DNA of 6,089 bases. It comes from a virus (Duplodnaviria; Heunggongvirae; Uroviricota; Caudoviricetes). Numbering within the stretch: the first letter of the stretch is position 1; every line of letters begins with the position of its first letter. Below, in pieces: positions 1 to 6,089 of this stretch. The DNA is taken from positions 1 through 6,089 of the IMG/VR virus record IMGVR_UViG_2684622669_000003. One strand, 5' to 3'. Under the pieces are notes generated by a model that made no database searches, was not told where the DNA came from, and worked only from the letters and a program-made list of their open reading frames with translations. A program made the position numbers and the translations under genes.

Positions 1-121
1 AATAACGGTCAAACATCGTGGCGTTGACAACGCACCAGTTGATTCATGCCCTCCGGGCTGAAGATTGCCGCAGCAGTACCTACAGTTGCGCCTGGTTGTG
101 ATGTGATTGCGATATCATTGC

Positions 122-943
122 TCATACGTACATATCCTGTTTACGTGCCCAGTCAGGGCGTTTAATAATTTCCACTCCGCCCCACTCATCGTTGATGCGG
201 CATTCGTGATAGGTATTCAGATCCCGGCGGAACAGAGCGTGCCCGGCATCGACATCCGGCGCATCCAGCTCGAACACGCGTACCGGATACCGACCACAAT
301 CAATGCTTTCGCTCACGGCAAGAAAGAAAAAACCATGCGGCTGACCAGTAACCCTCATTGCGCCTTCGCGGTACATTGCGTCCTGCACGTGGTAGCGGAA
401 TTCCTCGATGTGGCGTGCAAAACGGTCCATATCTGCAACCTTTTTCACGTCGACGATCACGTTGTGCTCGTTCAGCCATTTGTCTGGACGAATTCGGCAC
501 AACTCACCCGTCTCTTCATCGTTCCAGTACATTGATGCTTCGCAGTAACCAGGTGCTTCCAACATCCAGCGTGCCGCCGGATGAGCCATTGCGCTATCAC
601 GCATCAGCTCCAGTTTTCGCCACTGCTCGACATCAAGTACCGTAACACCCATATCCGCCACATCACGAAGAAATGCTTCTTCGTCAGCTTTACCTTGTTT
701 TGTCCGACGATCGAATTTCGGTGAAACGATGAAGCGTTTGTCGAATTCTCCAGGTTCCAGAAGCAGGCAGTGCAATGCGGTTCCCATATCCAGTGCAGAC
801 TTTTTCTCTTCGTCTTCTGGTGCTGCCTGAACCCATTTAAGAAGCGCCGGATTCTTGGCAACCATGTCCAGTTGCGACTTACTCACGCCGTCACCTGCGT
901 GGTAGTCTTCGTTGCTGATGTCGAAATAAATTCCCGGTTTCAT
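122..943 (-). CDS. RecE-like exodeoxyribonuclease VIII family (PD-(D/E)xK) nuclease, 273 aa
   Basis: Complete ORF in the track. RBS GAGGG 7 nt upstream of the ATG at 943; the start overlaps the stop of the upstream ORF as ATGA. N-terminus MKPGIYFDISNEDYH and a PD...(D/E)xK-like motif (RIRPD ... IVDVKK) match my recollection of phage RecE-type exonuclease domains; family assignment is from memory, not a search. Confidence 0.7.
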   Translation of the reverse strand: MKPGIYFDISNEDYHAGDGVSKSQLDMVAKNPALLKWVQAAPEDEEKKSALDMGTALHCLLLEPGEFDKRFIVSPKFDRRTKQGKADEEAFLRDVADMGVTVLDVEQWRKLELMRDSAMAHPAARWMLEAPGYCEASMYWNDEETGELCRIRPDKWLNEHNVIVDVKKVADMDRFARHIEEFRYHVQDAMYREGAMRVTGQPHGFFFLAVSESIDCGRYPVRVFELDAPDVDAGHALFRRDLNTYHECRINDEWGGVEIIKRPDWARKQDMYV

Positions 944-1239
944 GCCGCGTCCCTCTGCCCATCAAGCTGATCCGCCAGATCCCAGCGCGCTATAATTGCC
1001 ATTGCCTCGCGCCGGTAGGCATCCATCAGTTCTTCGAACTCAGGGCTGTCTTTAGCAGCCTCCAGCACTTCCTGACGAACGCCTTTGCCTGTTACAACGT
1101 CGAAAGTTGAGGACAGTTGATGAAGTCGGATGCTCTCAATCAGTTCAACTTGTCGGTCATATAGCTGTTCTGACAGGCGGTAGTCCTTGTCGAATGCCAG
1201 CATGATTTTTTGAAGATTTTTCTGCTGATTAACGTTCAT
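940..1239 (-). CDS. hypothetical early-left protein, 99 aa (function unknown; position suggests an accessory or host-interaction gene upstream of the exonuclease)
   Basis: ORF in the track is 940..1254; I prefer the internal ATG at 1239 because GGGAGGG sits 7 nt upstream and the upstream small ORF stops just before it (TGATAATG). Its stop overlaps the exonuclease start (ATGA), implying translational coupling. No family recognised. Confidence 0.6.
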   Translation of the reverse strand: MNVNQQKNLQKIMLAFDKDYRLSEQLYDRQVELIESIRLHQLSSTFDVVTGKGVRQEVLEAAKDSPEFEELMDAYRREAMAIIARWDLADQLDGQRDAA

Positions 1240-1241
1240 TA

Positions 1242-1394
1242 TCAGCCCTCCCATATCTCGTTATCGTTGGCCACATCGCGAGCTTCTTTGCTGACGAAAG
1301 CCCACTTAATACCTTCCTGTAAGGTGCGGAACTTCCAGCTCATGAATCCGCATGCAGTAACGCAGTACCAACCGTTGATGATTTTCCACTGCAT
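1242..1394 (-). CDS. small hypothetical protein, 50 aa (MQWKIINGWYCVTACGFMSWKFRTLQEGIKWAFVSKEARDVANDNEIWEG); first ORF of the leftward operon
   Basis: Absent from the ORF track (too short) but read manually on the minus strand: ATG at 1394, TGA at 1242-1244 immediately before the next ORF start. Weak AAGG RBS. Lies directly downstream of the putative leftward promoter. Aromatic and hydrophobic N-terminal half. Could be a Kil-like small protein by position only. Confidence 0.35.
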   Translation of the reverse strand: MQWKIINGWYCVTACGFMSWKFRTLQEGIKWAFVSKEARDVANDNEIWEG

Positions 1395-1413
1395 AACTTG
1401 TTACCTTGGTTTG

Positions 1414-1428
1414 TTACCGTTGAGGTAA
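1414..1428. promoter_or_regulatory. operator palindrome TTACC-GTTGA-GGTAA (leftward operator site 1)
   Basis: Perfect inverted repeat TTACC-N5-GGTAA overlapping the -10 and start region of the putative leftward promoter; member of a six-copy motif family confined to intergenic DNA. Confidence 0.55.
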
Positions 1429-1456
1429 TGATTATGCGTATTTGGTTTGATGTCAA
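1428..1456 (-). promoter_or_regulatory. putative leftward early promoter (pL-like): -35 TTGACA, 17-bp spacer, -10 AATCAT, read on the minus strand
   Basis: Minus-strand TTGACA (plus 1451-1456) and AATCAT (plus 1428-1433) with 17-bp spacing, about 30 bp upstream of the ATG at 1394; flanked by two operator palindromes. Confidence 0.4.
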
Positions 1457-1475
1457 TAGATATGAGTTAAAAAAA

Positions 1476-1490
1476 TTACCCGATAGGTAA
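1476..1490. promoter_or_regulatory. operator palindrome TTACC-CGATA-GGTAA (leftward operator site 2)
   Basis: Perfect TTACC-N5-GGTAA inverted repeat with an a/t flank extending it to 17 bp, located upstream of the -35 of the pL-like promoter. Confidence 0.55.
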
Positions 1491-1498
1491 TCAAATAG

Positions 1499-1526
1499 GC
1501 AATAAAAAAGCCGCCAGAAGGCGGCT
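1499..1526 (-). terminator. rho-independent terminator downstream of the repressor gene (minus strand)
   Basis: GC-rich hairpin AGCCGCC-AGAA-GGCGGCT (1509-1526) followed on the minus strand by TTTTTTATT; sits 22 bp after the repressor stop at 1548. Confidence 0.6.
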
Positions 1527-1547
1527 TACTTACTGAAAAATATGATT

Positions 1548-2132
1548 TTATTGTTTGTTTTTTTCGTTCTGGTTGATGACAAATTCAATGTAACTTTCGA
1601 TCTTTGCTTTCTCGGTTTCGGGTAACAAAGCGTAGCGCGAGCGGTCATAGTTGATAGTCGCAGGGTCGTGTGGGTGAATCAGTAGTTCATATCCGTGACG
1701 CCCGAATGCTGATGCAACATTCTCCAGGGTGGAAATGGAAACGCTGACCTCATTGTTTAACAGGCGGCTGATTGTCACCTGGGCGACGCCGGATGCGCGG
1801 TGAAGTTTTCCCTGCGTTGAAAGGTCGCGGCTTTCGCTCATCCAGCGTTCCAGGTTGTGAGCCGCCAGCTGACCAATGTCGCTTGGTCCGACAGGTTGAA
1901 AACCTTCCTGAGAAAGCGAGCGATCGATATCAAGCCAGTTACGGGGTTTATTGGCGGCAGCTTCAATTTTTCGCGCAACCTGGTCGCCGATAACCTTCTT
2001 GCCAAGAGCCCAGCGGTTTACCAGATTTGCCTGAGTTCCAAGTTTTTCTGCCATCCGCGTCTGAACACCATTGAATTCACGGTCGATCAAGTCGTTGAGA
2101 TTTTGCCTGCGGACGTCCTGGATACTTTTCAT
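1548..2132 (-). CDS. prophage immunity repressor candidate, 194 aa, two tandem Cro/C1-type HTH domains, no recognisable S24 peptidase/autocleavage domain
   Basis: Complete ORF in the track. Two segments with the classic HTH pattern (TRMAEKLGTQANLVNRWALGKK and ASGVAQVTISRLLNNEVSVSISTLENVASAFG). Divergently oriented to a cro-like gene with operator palindromes between them; followed by a terminator. The C-terminus lacks the Ser/Lys dyad context typical of LexA/CI-like cleavable repressors, as judged by eye. Confidence 0.7.
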   Translation of the reverse strand: MKSIQDVRRQNLNDLIDREFNGVQTRMAEKLGTQANLVNRWALGKKVIGDQVARKIEAAANKPRNWLDIDRSLSQEGFQPVGPSDIGQLAAHNLERWMSESRDLSTQGKLHRASGVAQVTISRLLNNEVSVSISTLENVASAFGRHGYELLIHPHDPATINYDRSRYALLPETEKAKIESYIEFVINQNEKNKQ

Positions 2133-2187
2133 TTTCTGGAAAATCGCCTCATATATGAATCAGTAGATGATTCAATTTAAAGCAATA

Positions 2188-2202
2188 TTACCCAACAGGT
2201 AA
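2188..2202. promoter_or_regulatory. operator palindrome TTACC-CAACA-GGTAA (rightward/divergent operator site 1), followed by a degenerate copy at 2205-2219 (gcACC-ACATA-GGTaa)
   Basis: Perfect TTACC-N5-GGTAA in the repressor/cro intergenic region; the adjacent degenerate site keeps the ACC-N5-GGT core. Confidence 0.55.
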
Positions 2203-2225
2203 ATGCACCACATAGGTAACTATCC

Positions 2226-2254
2226 TTGATTTTTGTTACCTTATGGGTGAATAT
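2226..2254 (+). promoter_or_regulatory. putative rightward early promoter (pR-like): -35 TTGATT, 17-bp spacer, weak -10 GAATAT (exact -10 uncertain)
   Basis: TTGATT at 2226-2231; AT-rich -10 candidates at 2249-2260; about 30 bp upstream of the cro-like start at 2287; an operator palindrome occupies the spacer. Confidence 0.4.
2236..2250. promoter_or_regulatory. operator palindrome TTACC-TTATG-GGTGA (rightward operator site, one mismatch)
   Basis: Imperfect member of the TTACC-N5-GGTAA family, between the -35 and -10 of the pR-like promoter. Confidence 0.5.
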
Positions 2255-2286
2255 TTATTATCTGAAATAAATATCAGGCAATAGCT

Positions 2287-2517
2287 ATGAGCGATAACGG
2301 ACATTTCGATTTCAAAAAGCACTGGCTTGCACTTACTCCAGATGAGCGTGAAGCCTTCGCACAGGAAGCCGGAACGACGAGTCACTATATCCAGACTCAC
2401 TTAACAGGTAAGCGCAAAATGCCAGGTAAGGTATTGATGAATGGGCTTTTTAAAGCCTGTAAAACAAGACAATGGCTGCGCTCAAAAGCAGAACTGGCAT
2501 ACTTCTTCTACTCATGA
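2287..2517 (+). CDS. Cro-like small HTH regulator, 76 aa
   Basis: Complete ORF in the track, divergent from the repressor and first gene of the rightward operon. Putative HTH (EAFAQEAGTTSHYIQTHLTGKRK). Followed by a strong terminator. Assignment is by position and size; sequence similarity to lambda or P22 Cro is not evident from memory. Confidence 0.6.
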   Translation: MSDNGHFDFKKHWLALTPDEREAFAQEAGTTSHYIQTHLTGKRKMPGKVLMNGLFKACKTRQWLRSKAELAYFFYS

Positions 2518-2539
2518 TATCCAGCCACAACCCTCTGTA

Positions 2540-2561
2540 GACCGCCACTCGGCGGTCTTTT
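2540..2561 (+). terminator. rho-independent terminator after the cro-like gene (tR1-like position)
   Basis: Hairpin GACCGCC-ACTC-GGCGGTC followed by TTTT, 23 bp after the stop at 2517. A weaker AT-rich hairpin (AACCA-AATC-TGGTT) and a T9 run follow at 2593-2619. Confidence 0.6.
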
Positions 2562-2668
2562 CATATCTATTCGCACCTCAAAGGTAATAAAAAACCAAAT
2601 CTGGTTGATCTTTTTTTTTGTGTCAGCACAAAATAACCGTAATCCCAATACTAATAACGGGGCTTACC

Positions 2669-2869
2669 ATGGAAATCATTACACGTATTGATGCCGCAAA
2701 GCGCGGACTTAAACGCTACTACACCGGAAAACCATGTAAGCACGGACATGACAGTGAACGCTGGGTTTACAACGGACACTGTGTTGAGTGCACCATGGAA
2801 TCAAACCGTCGCATCAGGGCAGAGATTAAGCAGATCATGATTAATTCCTCCCCACAACATTCAAGCTGA
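2669..2869 (+). CDS. small zinc-finger-like protein, 66 aa (CxHxH ... CxxC), in the cII position
   Basis: Track ORF 2618..2869 begins at a TTG immediately after a T9 run with no RBS; I prefer the ATG at 2669, with GGGG 6 nt upstream. Motif KPCKHGHDSERWVYNGHCVEC suggests metal binding. No family confidently recognised. Confidence 0.5.
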   Translation: MEIITRIDAAKRGLKRYYTGKPCKHGHDSERWVYNGHCVECTMESNRRIRAEIKQIMINSSPQHSS

Positions 2870-2884
2870 TAGCGGAGATTAATC

Positions 2885-3736
2885 ATGAGCAGACATGCAA
2901 CAGATTGGGCCTGGGAGACAGATCCGGGTAGCTCGTCATTAAAGCTCATACTGCTCTCGATGGCTGACAGAGCCGATGAATATAACCTCTGCTACCCCAG
3001 CATAGAACGCCTCGTTAAAGACACTTGCCTGAATAAAAAAACCGTACAGGCCGGGCTTATATCGCTCATGAAAATGGGGCTTATTTCAGATACCGGAGAG
3101 AGAAAGGGAGCGACGAAAAGAGTGCGGGTTTTCTCTCTTAATATAACCAAAAACGGGAACATTAAAGGCAACCGGGAAGGGAGCAATGAACCCGAAAACG
3201 GTAATGTTCCCGAAAACGGTAATGTTCCCGAAAACGGTAATGTTCCCGAAAACGGGAATATACCCAAAAACGGGATGTTGAATGATCCCAAAAACGGGAT
3301 GTTGAATGATCCCAAAAACGGGATCCAGAACCAGTCATATAACCAGTCATTTAACCAAGAGAGGGAGAGCAGGACAAAAGCCGGGGATTCTGTGCCTCAT
3401 GACCCCGGCGCAAACAACGCCGTGATGAATAACTTTGTTCCTCCTGGTGGGCCAGGGCAATTAGGCAAATTTGTCATGCATGAACAATGGCAGCCATCAG
3501 ATGACTTTCTTCGGAAAAGCTCATTGCAGGGGATCTACCTGGACAGTCTGCCAACGGCACAGGAACTTGCAGAGTTCAGAATTTACTGGATGGCTGAGGG
3601 TAAGGCATACCATCAGGCACAGTGGGAGCAGAAGCTGGCAAGGCGGCTGCAGATTAGCAGACAGAAGCAATCAACATTACCTGATAACAACGTTCCGCAC
3701 TGGAACAGCCCTGAAGCATGGGAGGATTTCTTGTGA
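2885..3736 (+). CDS. phage replication initiation protein (functional analogue of lambda O): N-terminal HTH DNA-binding domain, repeat-encoded linker, C-terminal domain resembling DnaT-like replication proteins
   Basis: Complete ORF in the track. GGAG RBS 7 nt upstream of the ATG. N-terminal region (LKLILLSMADRADEYNLCYPSIERLVKDTCLNKKTVQAGLISLMKMGLIS) fits the winged-HTH pattern of phage replication initiators. Linker is encoded by tandem DNA repeats (NGNVPE x4, NGMLNDPK x2). Stop overlaps the start of the P-like gene. Domain naming is from recollection. Confidence 0.7.
   Translation: MSRHATDWAWETDPGSSSLKLILLSMADRADEYNLCYPSIERLVKDTCLNKKTVQAGLISLMKMGLISDTGERKGATKRVRVFSLNITKNGNIKGNREGSNEPENGNVPENGNVPENGNVPENGNIPKNGMLNDPKNGMLNDPKNGIQNQSYNQSFNQERESRTKAGDSVPHDPGANNAVMNNFVPPGGPGQLGKFVMHEQWQPSDDFLRKSSLQGIYLDSLPTAQELAEFRIYWMAEGKAYHQAQWEQKLARRLQISRQKQSTLPDNNVPHWNSPEAWEDFL
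3191..3324. repeat. iteron-like direct repeat array: 7 units with core CCC(G/A)AAAACGG, spaced 18,18,18,18,24,24 bp; followed by a 12-bp direct repeat pair CCAGTCAT(A/T)TAA at 3331-3354
   Basis: Seen directly: cccgaaaacggtaatgtt x3, cccgaaaacgggaatata, cccaaaaacgggatgttgaatgat x2, cccaaaaacgggat. Located in the linker-coding part of the initiator gene, the arrangement known for ori-lambda inside gene O. Confidence 0.65.
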
Positions 3737-4518
3737 ACAACGTTTTTACCGCGATACAAAACCGTGACGGAGAAGCCCTTTCTCGCATGTCAGGTTATGA
3801 GCATCAGTACACTAACAATGACAACGTGGTGAACATGTCAGCAGAGAGGCTTGTTGATGCCCTTTTCAAACAGTTGAAACAACTGTTTCCGGCGGCAGTG
3901 GTAACCAACCTGAAGACGCCAGAGCAGGAAGTTGCTGCAAAACAGCAGTGGATTGCTGCGTTTGCCGAAGGGGGGATCCGAACCCGTGAACAGGTTTCTG
4001 CTGGTATGCGCCACGCCCGCGCCAGTGAATCTCCGTTCTGGCCGTCGCCAGGGCAATTCATCAAGTGGTGTAAAGACAGCAAGATGGTTCTTGGCGTCAC
4101 CATTGACGATGTGATGGCGGAGTTTCACCGGTACAGCAAGGAAAAAAGTTTATATCCTGGTGGTCCCGAAAGATTCCCGTGGCGGCATCCGGTTATGTAC
4201 TGGGTCGTATGTGATACCCGCCGTGCAATGTATCAGCGCCAGCTTAGCGAGATTGAGGTTGAGAAACACGCGCGCAGGCTGCTCGATGATTGGGCGAAAA
4301 AGGTGGCTTCCGGACAGCAGATACCCGAGCCGGTGATCAGCATACAGGCAAAGCCAGAGCCCATGAGTACACCTCCGGACACAGGGAGAGACGTTTACCA
4401 TCCATCAGGGCGAAGTTTCGGGTGCATGCCTAACGCCGCCACCCTTGGGGGAATAACACCAGCGCAGTGGCTGATGGAGGAATACAGGCGGGGAAAGGCG
4501 GCAGGATTTATCAAGTAA
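3733..4518 (+). CDS. P: lambda P-like replication protein (DnaB helicase loader)
   Basis: Translation aligns by eye with recalled lambda P (FPA...EQV.AGMR.AR....PF.PSPGQF..WC, YP....PW....YW, IPEPV). Start chosen at GTG 3733 (GGAGG 7 nt upstream, GTGA overlap with the initiator stop, as in lambda O/P); an alternative ATG at 3718 gives the track ORF 3718..4518. Confidence 0.8.
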   Translation: MNNVFTAIQNRDGEALSRMSGYEHQYTNNDNVVNMSAERLVDALFKQLKQLFPAAVVTNLKTPEQEVAAKQQWIAAFAEGGIRTREQVSAGMRHARASESPFWPSPGQFIKWCKDSKMVLGVTIDDVMAEFHRYSKEKSLYPGGPERFPWRHPVMYWVVCDTRRAMYQRQLSEIEVEKHARRLLDDWAKKVASGQQIPEPVISIQAKPEPMSTPPDTGRDVYHPSGRSFGCMPNAATLGGITPAQWLMEEYRRGKAAGFIK

Positions 4519-4523
4519 TACCA

Positions 4524-4543
4524 GCGCGATAGCGCATTTTTTT
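4524..4543 (+). terminator. possible weak terminator after the P-like gene (short GC stem GCGC-GATA-GCGC followed by T7)
   Basis: Only a 4-5 bp stem, but all GC and followed by seven T residues; 6 bp after the P-like stop. Confidence 0.25.
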
Positions 4544-4555
4544 ACGCCTCGATAA

Positions 4556-4570
4556 TTACCTAATGGGTAA
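4556..4570. promoter_or_regulatory. operator palindrome TTACC-TAATG-GGTAA (third locus, site 1)
   Basis: Perfect TTACC-N5-GGTAA with A/T flanks, upstream of the -35 of the promoter preceding the ORF at 4636. Confidence 0.5.
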
Positions 4571-4589
4571 CAAAATATTCTAAATTCTA

Positions 4590-4618
4590 TTGATTTCATG
4601 TCTTATGTGGTTTTTAAT
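4590..4618 (+). promoter_or_regulatory. putative sigma70 promoter: -35 TTGATT, 17-bp spacer, -10 TTTAAT, driving the post-replication gene block
   Basis: TTGATT at 4590-4595 and TTTAAT at 4613-4618, about 18 bp upstream of the ATG at 4636; same -35 hexamer as the pR-like promoter. Confidence 0.45.
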
Positions 4619-4632
4619 TACCTAGGAGGTAA
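4618..4632. promoter_or_regulatory. operator palindrome TTACC-TAGGA-GGTAA (third locus, site 2) overlapping the -10, transcription start and RBS
   Basis: Perfect TTACC-N5-GGTAA; the GGAGG RBS of the ORF at 4636 lies inside the palindrome. Confidence 0.5.
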
Positions 4633-4635
4633 ATC

Positions 4636-4980
4636 ATGAGAAAACAGATACAGGCTCTTGGTCGACTCAAAACAGGCCAGATGAACAAAACAGAATCTGC
4701 GTATTGCCAGCACCTTGAGCTGCGTAAACGTGCAGGAGAAATCGTCTGGTATCGATTTGAGGGTATCAAGCTGCGGTTAGCTGACAACACGTTCTATACG
4801 CCCGATTTTGCTGTGATGCTCGCCACCGGCGAGATGGAACTGCACGAAGTGAAAGGTTTCTGGACCGACGACGCCAGGGTGAAAACCAAAGTCGCCGCAG
4901 ATCAGTATCCGTTCCGAATCATCGGGGTAACGGTTAAACCAAAGAAAGCAGGTGGTGGCTGGAGCATCGAAGAGTTCTGA
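4636..4980 (+). CDS. DUF1064-like small phage protein with PD-(D/E)xK nuclease-fold signature, 114 aa
   Basis: Complete ORF in the track with a strong RBS (AGGAGG). Motif YTPDF ... ELHEVKG fits a PD-x(n)-(D/E)xK catalytic core; the DUF1064 label is from recollection of similar prophage ORFs. Confidence 0.6.
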   Translation: MRKQIQALGRLKTGQMNKTESAYCQHLELRKRAGEIVWYRFEGIKLRLADNTFYTPDFAVMLATGEMELHEVKGFWTDDARVKTKVAADQYPFRIIGVTVKPKKAGGGWSIEEF

Positions 4981-5041
4981 ATCGACGATCTTTTTAGTTA
5001 TCAATGTAATCAATAAGTTATGTGGATAAGCGAGGGTAAAG

Positions 5042-5605
5042 ATGGAAAGTAATATCAAAGGGTTAGTTGCCGCCGGGCATGAGATAGCTTCGGAACTGAA
5101 AGCAGAATGTTGTGCCGTTGATATGCGCAGTGTGGCAAAGCTGATCAGCGATTTGGCAACGCAACTGGAATTGCAACTGGTGCGTGCTAATGCGCTGGCC
5201 GAAGACCAGCAGAAAGCGATTGAGTCAATTAAGCAGGCTGATGCAGCTGTTAAGTTGGCACACGAGAAGTTTTCGGCGCTGGCGGCGGAGAATGCGGGGC
5301 TGAAGTCTGGCGCTATGGACGAAATCAAGGTTATCAACCGTGGAGGGCAGGCATATTGCGTAAAAGATGGAGTGCAAGTTAATCCCATGTATGCAAGAGG
5401 GTGGAATGACTATCGCGCAAAGTTTCTGCAATCAGACACCCCAGCTACCGATGCTTTTCTGGCTGAAATTCGTGCAGAAGCACGCAACGAGGGGATTAAC
5501 TATACCGCCAGCCGTCTTGCTGCTGCTTTCAACCACGGATTTATCAATAAGTCTTTGCGTGAAGTTTTCGACGTTACACGCATGATTCTGTCAGCGAAAG
5601 AATAG
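5042..5605 (+). CDS. hypothetical phage protein, 187 aa, alanine/glutamate-rich and predicted helical N-terminal half; ends at a TAG followed by 33 in-frame sense codons
   Basis: Complete ORF in the track; GAGGG RBS 5 nt upstream of the ATG. No family recognised. Confidence 0.65.
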   Translation: MESNIKGLVAAGHEIASELKAECCAVDMRSVAKLISDLATQLELQLVRANALAEDQQKAIESIKQADAAVKLAHEKFSALAAENAGLKSGAMDEIKVINRGGQAYCVKDGVQVNPMYARGWNDYRAKFLQSDTPATDAFLAEIRAEARNEGINYTASRLAAAFNHGFINKSLREVFDVTRMILSAKE

Positions 5606-5703
5606 TTGGCTAATGAACTGCACCCGATTGATGGCCTGTCCGGTGAATATGCGGAGAAATCCCTTGAAGAATGGGCGGAACAGATTCGCAAAGGAGGCAA
5701 CCA

Positions 5704-6089
5704 GTGAGCAAGATTGACTATGAGGCACTGCGTGCCAAGGCAGAAAAAGCAACGTGTGGTGTATGGTCGCTCGAATATGGAGAGAGCCGATTTGATTGTG
5801 ATGATGCGCTAATTCATCGCGAGGCTGCTGGATATATTCCCATTTGCAGAATTGAAGGAGCGCATCCTGAAAGCGGTTTCGATGAAGATTTCCAAATGGA
5901 ACAGCAGGCCAATGCTGAATTCATCGCCGCAGCCAGTCCAGCTACCGTGCTGGCGCTGCTGGATGAACGGGAAAGAAACCAGCAATACATCAAAAGCCGT
6001 GATCAGGAGAACGAGGATATTGCGCTAACGGTAGGGAAACTGCGTGTTGAGCTGGAAGCCGCAGAGAAGCGCAACGCAAAATTACAAAG
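5704..6089 (+). CDS. Ead/Ea22-like family protein, 5' partial (runs off the window end)
   Basis: GTG start at 5704 with AAAGGAGG 6 nt upstream; open to the window end (128 codons). N-terminus VSKIDYEALRAKAEKATCGVWS matches my recollection of the Ea22-like N-terminal motif (ALR..AEKAT.G.W). Not in the track because no stop falls inside the window. Confidence 0.55.
   Translation, partial: MSKIDYEALRAKAEKATCGVWSLEYGESRFDCDDALIHREAAGYIPICRIEGAHPESGFDEDFQMEQQANAEFIAAASPATVLALLDERERNQQYIKSRDQENEDIALTVGKLRVELEAAEKRNAKLQ

Follow-up and report, generated by a model that had tools for sequence, protein, structure and literature searches.

Salmonella phage epsilon15 is the type member of the genus Uetakevirus, and its RefSeq record (NC_004775.2) carries seven protein_bind features labelled 'repressor', all of the form (A)TTACC-N5-GGTAAT, i.e. 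two inverted arms around a 5-bp spacer. Here we analyse the same motif in a 6,089-nucleotide stretch of viral DNA (positions 1 to 6,089 of IMG/VR record IMGVR_UViG_2684622669_000003, hereafter the window), which is the early and immunity region of a phiV10-like temperate podovirus of this genus. Judging from sequence comparison, the TTACC-N5-GGTAA palindromes of the window are very probably the operators of the maintenance repressor of the prophage, which belongs to the SPC32H/epsilon15 Rep family. The system itself is known: its operators carry annotation in epsilon15, and SPC32H has provided a solved structure and a characterisation of the repressor family. For this reason our analysis opens no new question; what it adds is an eight-site map of the phiV10 type, a cassette with a 62-bp operator bracket that is shared by two promoters, a set of conserved graded sites and an operator core common to the genus.

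The N-terminal domains of SPC32H Rep reportedly bind DNA, while residues 92-198 are said by Kim et al. (2016) to form both the tetramer and the interface with the small antirepressor Ant. Neither the phiV10 record, which is without repressor-site annotation, nor a full-text literature search by sequence (ATTACC/GGTAAT), which returned only noise, adds to the operators annotated in epsilon15. SPC32H Rep is described as binding DNA as a tetramer in which the pairs of DNA-binding domains at each palindrome come from different dimers (PMC9638917), and the tetrameric Ant is described as breaking up this tetramer (PMC9638917; bioRxiv 2025.11.27.690993). In phage vB_EcoP_ZX5, overexpression of the repressor suppresses lytic development, with no operator defined in that study; the antirepressor tested there differs in being of the Bro-N type, a label that comes from the phiV10 record (PMC9782041).

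The window contains five perfect copies of TTACC-N5-GGTAA, one copy with a single mismatch (TTACC..GGTGA) and one with two (GCACC..GGTAA), exactly as the first-pass annotation of this DNA had listed them. As palindromes of 15-17 bp with TTACC/GGTAA arms and a 5-bp spacer, they have the form of the Uetakevirus repressor operator. The accompanying claims that all copies lie in non-coding DNA and that about 0.006 would be expected by chance are likewise sound: all seven fall outside real genes, the last of them overlapping the ribosome-binding site for the DUF1064 gene (start at 4636), and the arithmetic (6089/4^10) is right. When 5+5 inverted repeats are tallied de novo at every spacer length from 0 to 12 bp, with no motif given in advance, TTACC at a spacing of 5 bp ranks first in the window, with five copies versus two for the runner-up. 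With up to two mismatches allowed, the window holds 10 matches, compared with a mean of 1.58 and a maximum of 5 in 200 dinucleotide-preserving shuffles, none of which reached 10. Together with the epsilon15 label and the conservation documented below, this enrichment bears out the view that the motif is a genuine regulatory element of the prophage. The sites, with the promoters and terminators around them, are listed here; OL, OR and O3 denote operators at the leftward promoter (PL), in the divergent rep/cro region, which holds the rightward promoter (PR), and at a third promoter (P3).

1414-1428, no strand: OL-proximal operator, perfect; abuts the PL -10 and covers the start region; half-sites invariant in four of five phiV10-type genomes.
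1428-1456, minus strand: PL-like leftward early promoter, TTGACA (1456-1451), 17 bp, AATCAT (1433-1428); 10/12 matches in the promoter scan.
1476-1490, no strand: OL-distal operator, perfect; upstream of the OL-proximal operator, 62 bp centre-to-centre.
1508-1527, minus strand: intrinsic terminator of the repressor transcript; annotated in phiV10.
2188-2202, no strand: OR site A, perfect, on the rep-gene side; half-sites invariant and spacer variable in five genomes.
2205-2219, no strand: OR site B, a conserved weakened site, GCACC-N5-GGTAA, 17 bp from site A; deviant arm G(C/T)ACC kept in five genomes.
2233-2261, plus strand: PR-like rightward early promoter, TTGTTA (2233-2238), 17 bp, TATTAT (2256-2261); 9/12 matches in the scan.
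2236-2250, no strand: OR site C, TTACC-N5-GGTGA, overlapping the PR -35 and spacer; GGTGA arm invariant in five genomes.
2539-2558, plus strand: intrinsic terminator after the cro-like gene; annotated in phiV10.
2573-2587, no strand: degenerate copy in a fourth region, GCACC-N5-GGTAAT, two mismatches; nnACC-N5-GGTAAT kept at this position in seven genomes.
4524-4543, plus strand: weak hairpin and T-run closing the replication operon; annotated as a terminator in phiV10; stems kept and loops variable; fold -8.7 kcal/mol, z -2.35.
4556-4570, no strand: O3-distal operator, perfect.
4590-4618, plus strand: P3, third early promoter, TTGATT (4590-4595), 17 bp, TTTAAT (4613-4618); found by comparing the register of PL (minus strand) and P3 (plus strand) in five phages.
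4618-4632, no strand: O3-proximal operator, perfect, 62 bp from the O3-distal operator; overlaps both the start region and the DUF1064 Shine-Dalgarno sequence.

A 150-kb sample of the Escherichia coli K-12 chromosome contains one perfect and nine one-mismatch copies, compared with five and one in the 6.1-kb window. The density in this sample is near random expectation and approximately 100-fold below that of the window, which speaks strongly against the palindromes being sites of a host transcription factor, common in the chromosome, that the phage exploits. Since the motif also travels with the Rep gene across eight enterobacterial genera, we consider this possibility, which the first-pass annotation had named as a refuting case and for which nothing turned up in its favour, highly improbable, and we dropped it on the strength of the K-12 sample. 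Two-mismatch matches are a different matter, as they occur near the background rate (four in the window, 93 per 150 kb in K-12). We nevertheless count the copy at 2205-2219 as a site because its position and its deviant arm are kept in relatives, and the same argument from positional conservation yields an eighth site at 2573-2587, in a fourth intergenic region. The two-mismatch copies at 891-905 and 2397-2411, which belong to the same background-rate class and lie inside genes, were taken as chance.

To follow the sites in relatives, we aligned the three control regions of five phiV10-type genomes, namely the window, Tyrion, BUCT554, a Superficieibacter prophage and an Erwinia prophage, the repressors of the four relatives being 73-78% identical to that of the window. 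Invariant columns make up 68/70 (97%) of the half-site positions and 10/35 (29%) of the spacer positions (Fisher p = 5e-14 for this contrast), and 210/353 of the other intergenic positions. The imperfect arms are themselves kept, G(C/T)ACC in site B and GGTGA in site C, which indicates that sites A, B and C form a tuned affinity series rather than the products of decay. TCACC recurs as a variant half-site at many one-mismatch copies across genomes. The counterpart of site B is perfect at the same offset in epsilon15 and SPC32H. Between the window and phiV10, operator differences are limited to spacers or to an arm that is already degenerate.

The pattern of conservation also bears on whether the palindromes might act in the transcript, whether as translational operators, RNase III sites or hairpins. 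In RNA, the arms could pair into a stem of 5 bp closing a 5-nt loop, and the site at 4618-4632 includes a Shine-Dalgarno sequence; however, the sites at 1476-1490 and 4556-4570 lie upstream of a -35 and that at 2236-2250 lies over a -35 and spacer, i.e. upstream of the predicted start points. A 5-bp A/U-rich stem would moreover be marginal, and the arms are unchanging between genomes, without the compensatory variation expected of an RNA stem. Action at the level of RNA is therefore most unlikely.

Beyond the phiV10 type, TTACC with a 5-bp spacer ranks first among 5+5 inverted repeats in each of the six Uetakevirus genomes examined, with 8 perfect copies in phiV10, 10 in SPC32H, 9 in Tyrion, 8 in BUCT554, 9 in BUCT711 and 11 in epsilon15. 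The layout is syntenic in the six genomes. A pair of sites 62 bp apart (63 bp in BUCT711) lies at the leftward promoter; three sites at relative positions 0, +17 and +47/48 lie between the repressor and cro-like genes (the A-B and B-C spacings in the window are 17 and 31 bp); and a second 62-bp pair precedes the gene that follows the replication module, its second copy always reading ..GGTAAatcATG, as at the O3-proximal operator (6/6 genomes). This placement at PL, between rep and cro and at the post-replication promoter is that of operators.

The agreement with the annotated sites of epsilon15 is close, extending to the core motif, the genus, the gene order, the PL pair and the pair after the replication module, and the epsilon15 annotation covers both the PL and the post-replication sites, all seven of its features standing in syntenic places. 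Further sites lie before terS, before gp3, in the tail-fibre/ant region and before the lysis cassette. The two phages differ in that the epsilon15 repressor is 42-43% identical overall to that of the window, that OR site B is weakened in the window and perfect in epsilon15, and that in epsilon15 the PL pair is joined by another site 76 bp farther away; in addition, phiV10-type spacers, unlike those of epsilon15, tolerate G/C and avoid A beside TTACC.

The proposal that the motif is confined to three control regions does not survive this comparison. When one mismatch is allowed, phiV10 has 14 sites where 0.64 would be expected, and they are spread over at least eight intergenic regions; the window has its own fourth-region copy at 2573-2587. 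Outside the counterparts of the three control regions, the phiV10 sites lie before terS, before gp3/p06, on both sides of the ant homologue p24, before the lysis cassette, before int and after the terminator downstream of cro, the last being the equivalent of window 2573-2587. At the left genome end, two operator copies 18 bp apart are found at or before the start of the small terminase gene (phiV10 87-119, Tyrion 67-99, epsilon15 12-44). The phiV10 pair lies inside the annotated terS coding sequence (41-715), and the annotated start codon may thus be too far upstream. Before int there is a conserved one-mismatch copy, ggtaTTACC-N5-GGTATac (phiV10 26870, SPC32H 26960, Tyrion 28568, epsilon15 26882). 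This copy is part of a longer palindrome (GGTATTACC..GGTATAC-like) and overlaps annotated integrase-binding and RNase III features in epsilon15; it may be something other than a repressor site.

Which protein reads these sites? The adjacent 194-aa regulator is 100% identical to the repressors of phiV10 and vB_EcoP_ZX5. A phmmer search against the PDB retrieves SPC32H Rep (5D50, E 4e-42 over residues 1-190) and its crystallised C-terminal fragment (5D4Z, residues 92-198, E 4e-20), and this homology over the full length, N-terminal and C-terminal domains alike, makes the regulator a repressor of the Rep type. Pfam finds HTH_3 at residues 106-147 and a weak YdaS-like helix-turn-helix (HTH) at 21-61. 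It finds no peptidase S24 domain in the 194-aa protein, which is accordingly not of the lambda cI type with S24/RecA cleavage. Identity to the window's protein ranges from 42 to 100% among the repressors of the six Uetakevirus genomes, yet all six have the same sequence, NLVNRW, at residues 36-41, within the N-terminal HTH. SPC32H Rep and the epsilon15 protein are nearly identical to each other; the former is 53% identical to the window protein in the N-terminal domain and 38% in the C-terminal domain.

The motif accompanies the Rep gene in Escherichia, Salmonella, Klebsiella, Enterobacter, Citrobacter, Erwinia, Superficieibacter and Scandinavium. Six more enterobacterial loci that encode full-length Rep homologues have 4-7 perfect sites within 7.5 kb, and five loci with relatives of the N-terminal domain only and a different recognition helix (Paraburkholderia, Hydrogenovibrio, Thiomicrospira) have none. 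The invariance of the helix and the co-occurrence of the motif with full-length Rep fit Rep as the binder. The first-pass choice of the neighbouring tandem-HTH repressor thus stands insofar as this protein, a homologue of SPC32H Rep with two HTHs by Pfam, is the best candidate; the notion of two HTHs in tandem does not carry over in full, since in the homologue only the N-terminal domains reportedly contact the palindromes, and the C-terminal HTH-like domain is reported to be the tetramerisation and Ant-interacting module.

A second candidate is the Cro-like 76-aa protein encoded at 2287-2517, which could be the primary or an additional reader of the motif, with operator sharing in the manner of lambda and shut-off of early transcription in the lytic cycle; on this view, the core would be held invariant by the demands of two proteins at once. 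The 76-aa protein has a match to phrog_35 'transcriptional repressor' (E 5.6e-13) and is 76% identical between the window and epsilon15 (gp39), with AGTTSHYIQ/HLT invariant, as compared with only 42% for Rep; across the genus, its identity to the window protein is 58-84% versus 42-78% for the repressor. On the other hand, the Cro-like protein has no Pfam match and no solved homologue was found for it, the epsilon15 curators assign the sites to the repressor, and silencing of sites remote from the switch (terS, lysis, int) is what a maintenance repressor needs. We regard a role of the Cro-like protein as a serious possibility, although the less probable one, and sharing of sites by Cro and Rep is compatible with Rep as the maintenance repressor, making this a partial rival only.

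Several observations count against the assignment to Rep and the promoter map that goes with it. Co-occurrence cannot separate Rep from the Cro-like protein, the HTH of which is equally invariant. The contrast between full-length and N-domain loci is suggestive, as it is confounded by phylogeny and by the seeding of the search with the recognition helix: the scan used the peptides MKSI..RR and NLVNRW, and full-length relatives with a changed helix could not be returned. For the promoter from which rep would be maintained, the minus strand at 2133-2187 offers only poor candidates (TTGAAT-16-TATGAG, not kept in Tyrion). Finally, the P3 -10 (TTTAAT) is without the canonical A at position 2, which is also why P3 was missed by the promoter scanner.

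Assignment of the sites to Rep draws further weight from the organisation of PL and P3. At PL, the -35 TTGAC is kept in five genomes, and the -10 and the operator at 1414-1428 share one base, the final T of the former opening the latter, so that this operator covers the start region. P3 is laid out in the same way: the operator at 4556-4570 is followed by 19 bp, TTGATT, 17 bp and TTTAAT, whose last T opens the operator at 4618-4632. The two are one cassette in exact register, made up of an operator, TATTGA (one preceding base and the first five bases of the -35), 17 bp and a -10 fused to the second operator. Twelve base pairs ending in the first five hexamer bases, TCTATTGA, are common to both, and PL (1385-1500, minus strand) and P3 (4546-4661, plus strand) are identical at 61/116 bases. 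The register is kept in the window, phiV10, Tyrion, SPC32H and epsilon15, and TTGATT is invariant in the five aligned phiV10-type genomes. The weak but conserved hairpin and T-run that precede P3 suggest that it is an independent, repressor-guarded promoter. Spacing of the PL pair is 62 bp in 10 of the 13 listed genomes and loci, 63 bp in BUCT711 and a Klebsiella locus and 61 bp in a Scandinavium locus, so that the bracket stays within 1 bp (61-63 bp) in every genome examined.

The following mechanism would account for this architecture. Rep would assemble as a tetramer, and its paired N-terminal HTHs, with NLVNRW as the recognition helix, would each read one 15-bp palindrome. At PL and P3, one site would abut the -10 over the start point and the second would lie 62 bp, i.e. 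approximately six helical turns, upstream; a single tetramer could clamp both and enclose the promoter. More tentatively, the 62-bp bracket could match, on the DNA, the Rep tetramer with its pairing in trans, one tetramer enclosing one promoter. In the rep/cro region, where the PR block is almost invariant in five genomes, site C would occlude the PR -35, and sites A and B, toward the rep gene, would presumably serve autoregulation. One further, degenerate copy lies behind the post-cro terminator, and the same motif would guard the starts of other transcription units in the phage. Induction would proceed through an antirepressor that is encoded outside the window under SOS (LexA) control, not through RecA-mediated cleavage.

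With the OL and OR operators of lambda, P22 and 434 this arrangement shares divergent rep and cro genes flanking three graded palindromes, a separate leftward promoter with operators of its own and a small Cro-like HTH protein encoded next door. It would differ in its repressor, which has two HTH-like domains and no S24 domain and, by comparison with SPC32H, probably has a different oligomeric form and is inactivated by an antirepressor; moreover, its paired sites stand 62 bp apart around a promoter rather than next to each other, and there are about 14 sites phage-wide versus 6. The stoperators of mycobacteriophage L5 resemble the present sites in being many copies of one short sequence placed genome-wide at the starts of transcription units. 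Those are asymmetric and oriented within transcribed DNA, whereas these are symmetric palindromes in intergenic promoter regions, and the repressors belong to unrelated protein families.

The likeness to the SPC32H Rep/Ant switch (Kim & Ryu 2013; Kim et al. 2016; PDB 5D4Z, 5D50) lies in the full-length homology of Rep, the lack of an autocleavage domain and the same motif. As for differences, Ant and its LexA box are outside the window, and the tetramer and the pairing in trans are described for SPC32H Rep only. The genome of phiV10 carries both elements together with the 100% identical repressor. Its p24 is 88% identical to SPC32H Ant, and a LexA-box-like CTGTATAAATACACAG lies just upstream of it, as for SPC32H ant. 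An Ant homologue behind a LexA box and the lack of an S24 domain together point to SOS-controlled antirepression as the likely route of induction. The ant genes and LexA boxes are at 20543-20800 and 20822-20837 in phiV10 and at 19676-19936 and 19958-19973 in SPC32H, and both ant genes have a LexA-box-like CTGTATAAA..ACAG just upstream.

The fourth region holds more than a degenerate operator. The phiV10 equivalent of 2573-2587 has one mismatch only, and 3' of the site there is a conserved block, ATCCAAATCTGG TTGATC (2605-2610), 18 bp, CAAAAT (2629-2634). Element and block (2573-2634) are kept across seven genomes, including epsilon15 and a Klebsiella phage, and the TTGATC-18-CAAAAT block at 2605-2634 may be a separate promoter for the replication genes.

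The genes of the window are the following.

122-943, minus strand: recE-like nuclease.
940-1254 and 1242-1394, minus strand: two small genes.
1548-2132, minus strand: repressor gene, 194 aa, SPC32H Rep family; N-terminal HTH with invariant NLVNRW, C-terminal HTH_3-like domain.
2287-2517, plus strand: Cro-like 76-aa HTH protein, first rightward gene; phrog_35 match.
2669-2869, plus strand: gene of a 66-aa protein.
2885-3736, plus strand: DnaT/O-like initiator.
3718-4518, plus strand: lambda-P-like protein.
4636-4980, plus strand: DUF1064 protein, ATG at 4636.
5042-5605, plus strand: eae-like protein.

Within the DnaT/O-like gene, positions 3191-3324 hold two tandem arrays, one of 18 bp x 4.6 (CCCGAAAACGGTAATGTT) and one of 24 bp x 2.6 (CCCAAAAACGGGATGTTGAATGAT), followed by a third of 12 bp x 2.4 at 3329-3357; the whole (3191-3357) resembles an origin of the lambda type, its iterons lying within the gene for the initiator. 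GGTAAT is present in the 18-bp iterons, and we rejected them as Rep sites because, read by eye, the partner arm has three mismatches at a 5-bp spacing.

Identity between the window and the early regions of the Escherichia phages phiv142-3, PAS61 and phiV10 is 96-97%, and at least 80% of the window is found in 339 of 5,426 complete E. coli genomes. Among the complete E. coli genomes and phage records searched, the whole window has no match above approximately 97%, and it would therefore come from a variant of the phiV10 lineage outside those collections. The immunity module is accordingly a common one, present in E. coli genomes, in O157 typing phages and in the phiV10 reporter phage. A map of its operators helps with annotation, with the engineering of virulent derivatives and with the interpretation of the published tetramer model of SPC32H Rep.

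Finally, the comparison informs how immunity is set in the genus, the host range of which here comprises Escherichia, Klebsiella and Salmonella. It had been proposed that the motif and its repressor define the immunity specificity of this prophage; for the core motif this is not borne out, the core being identical in phages whose repressors are 42-100% identical. Since core motif and recognition helix are common to phages with repressors of 42% identity, the core alone cannot distinguish immunity types. The base next to TTACC is A in 15/36 epsilon15-type versus 3/58 phiV10-type half-sites (Fisher p 2e-5, the sites not being independent), and this avoidance of A in the phiV10 type is a lead to specificity only. 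Ant is 88% identical between phiV10 and SPC32H even though the repressors are 42% identical, and 38% in the C-terminal domain that is reported to bind Ant, which raises how one Ant fits such divergent Rep C-terminal domains. Tentatively, a single operator core and recognition helix across the genus may mean either that these phages form one cross-repressing immunity group or that specificity resides outside the half-site, in the spacer base or in the pairing of Rep with Ant.

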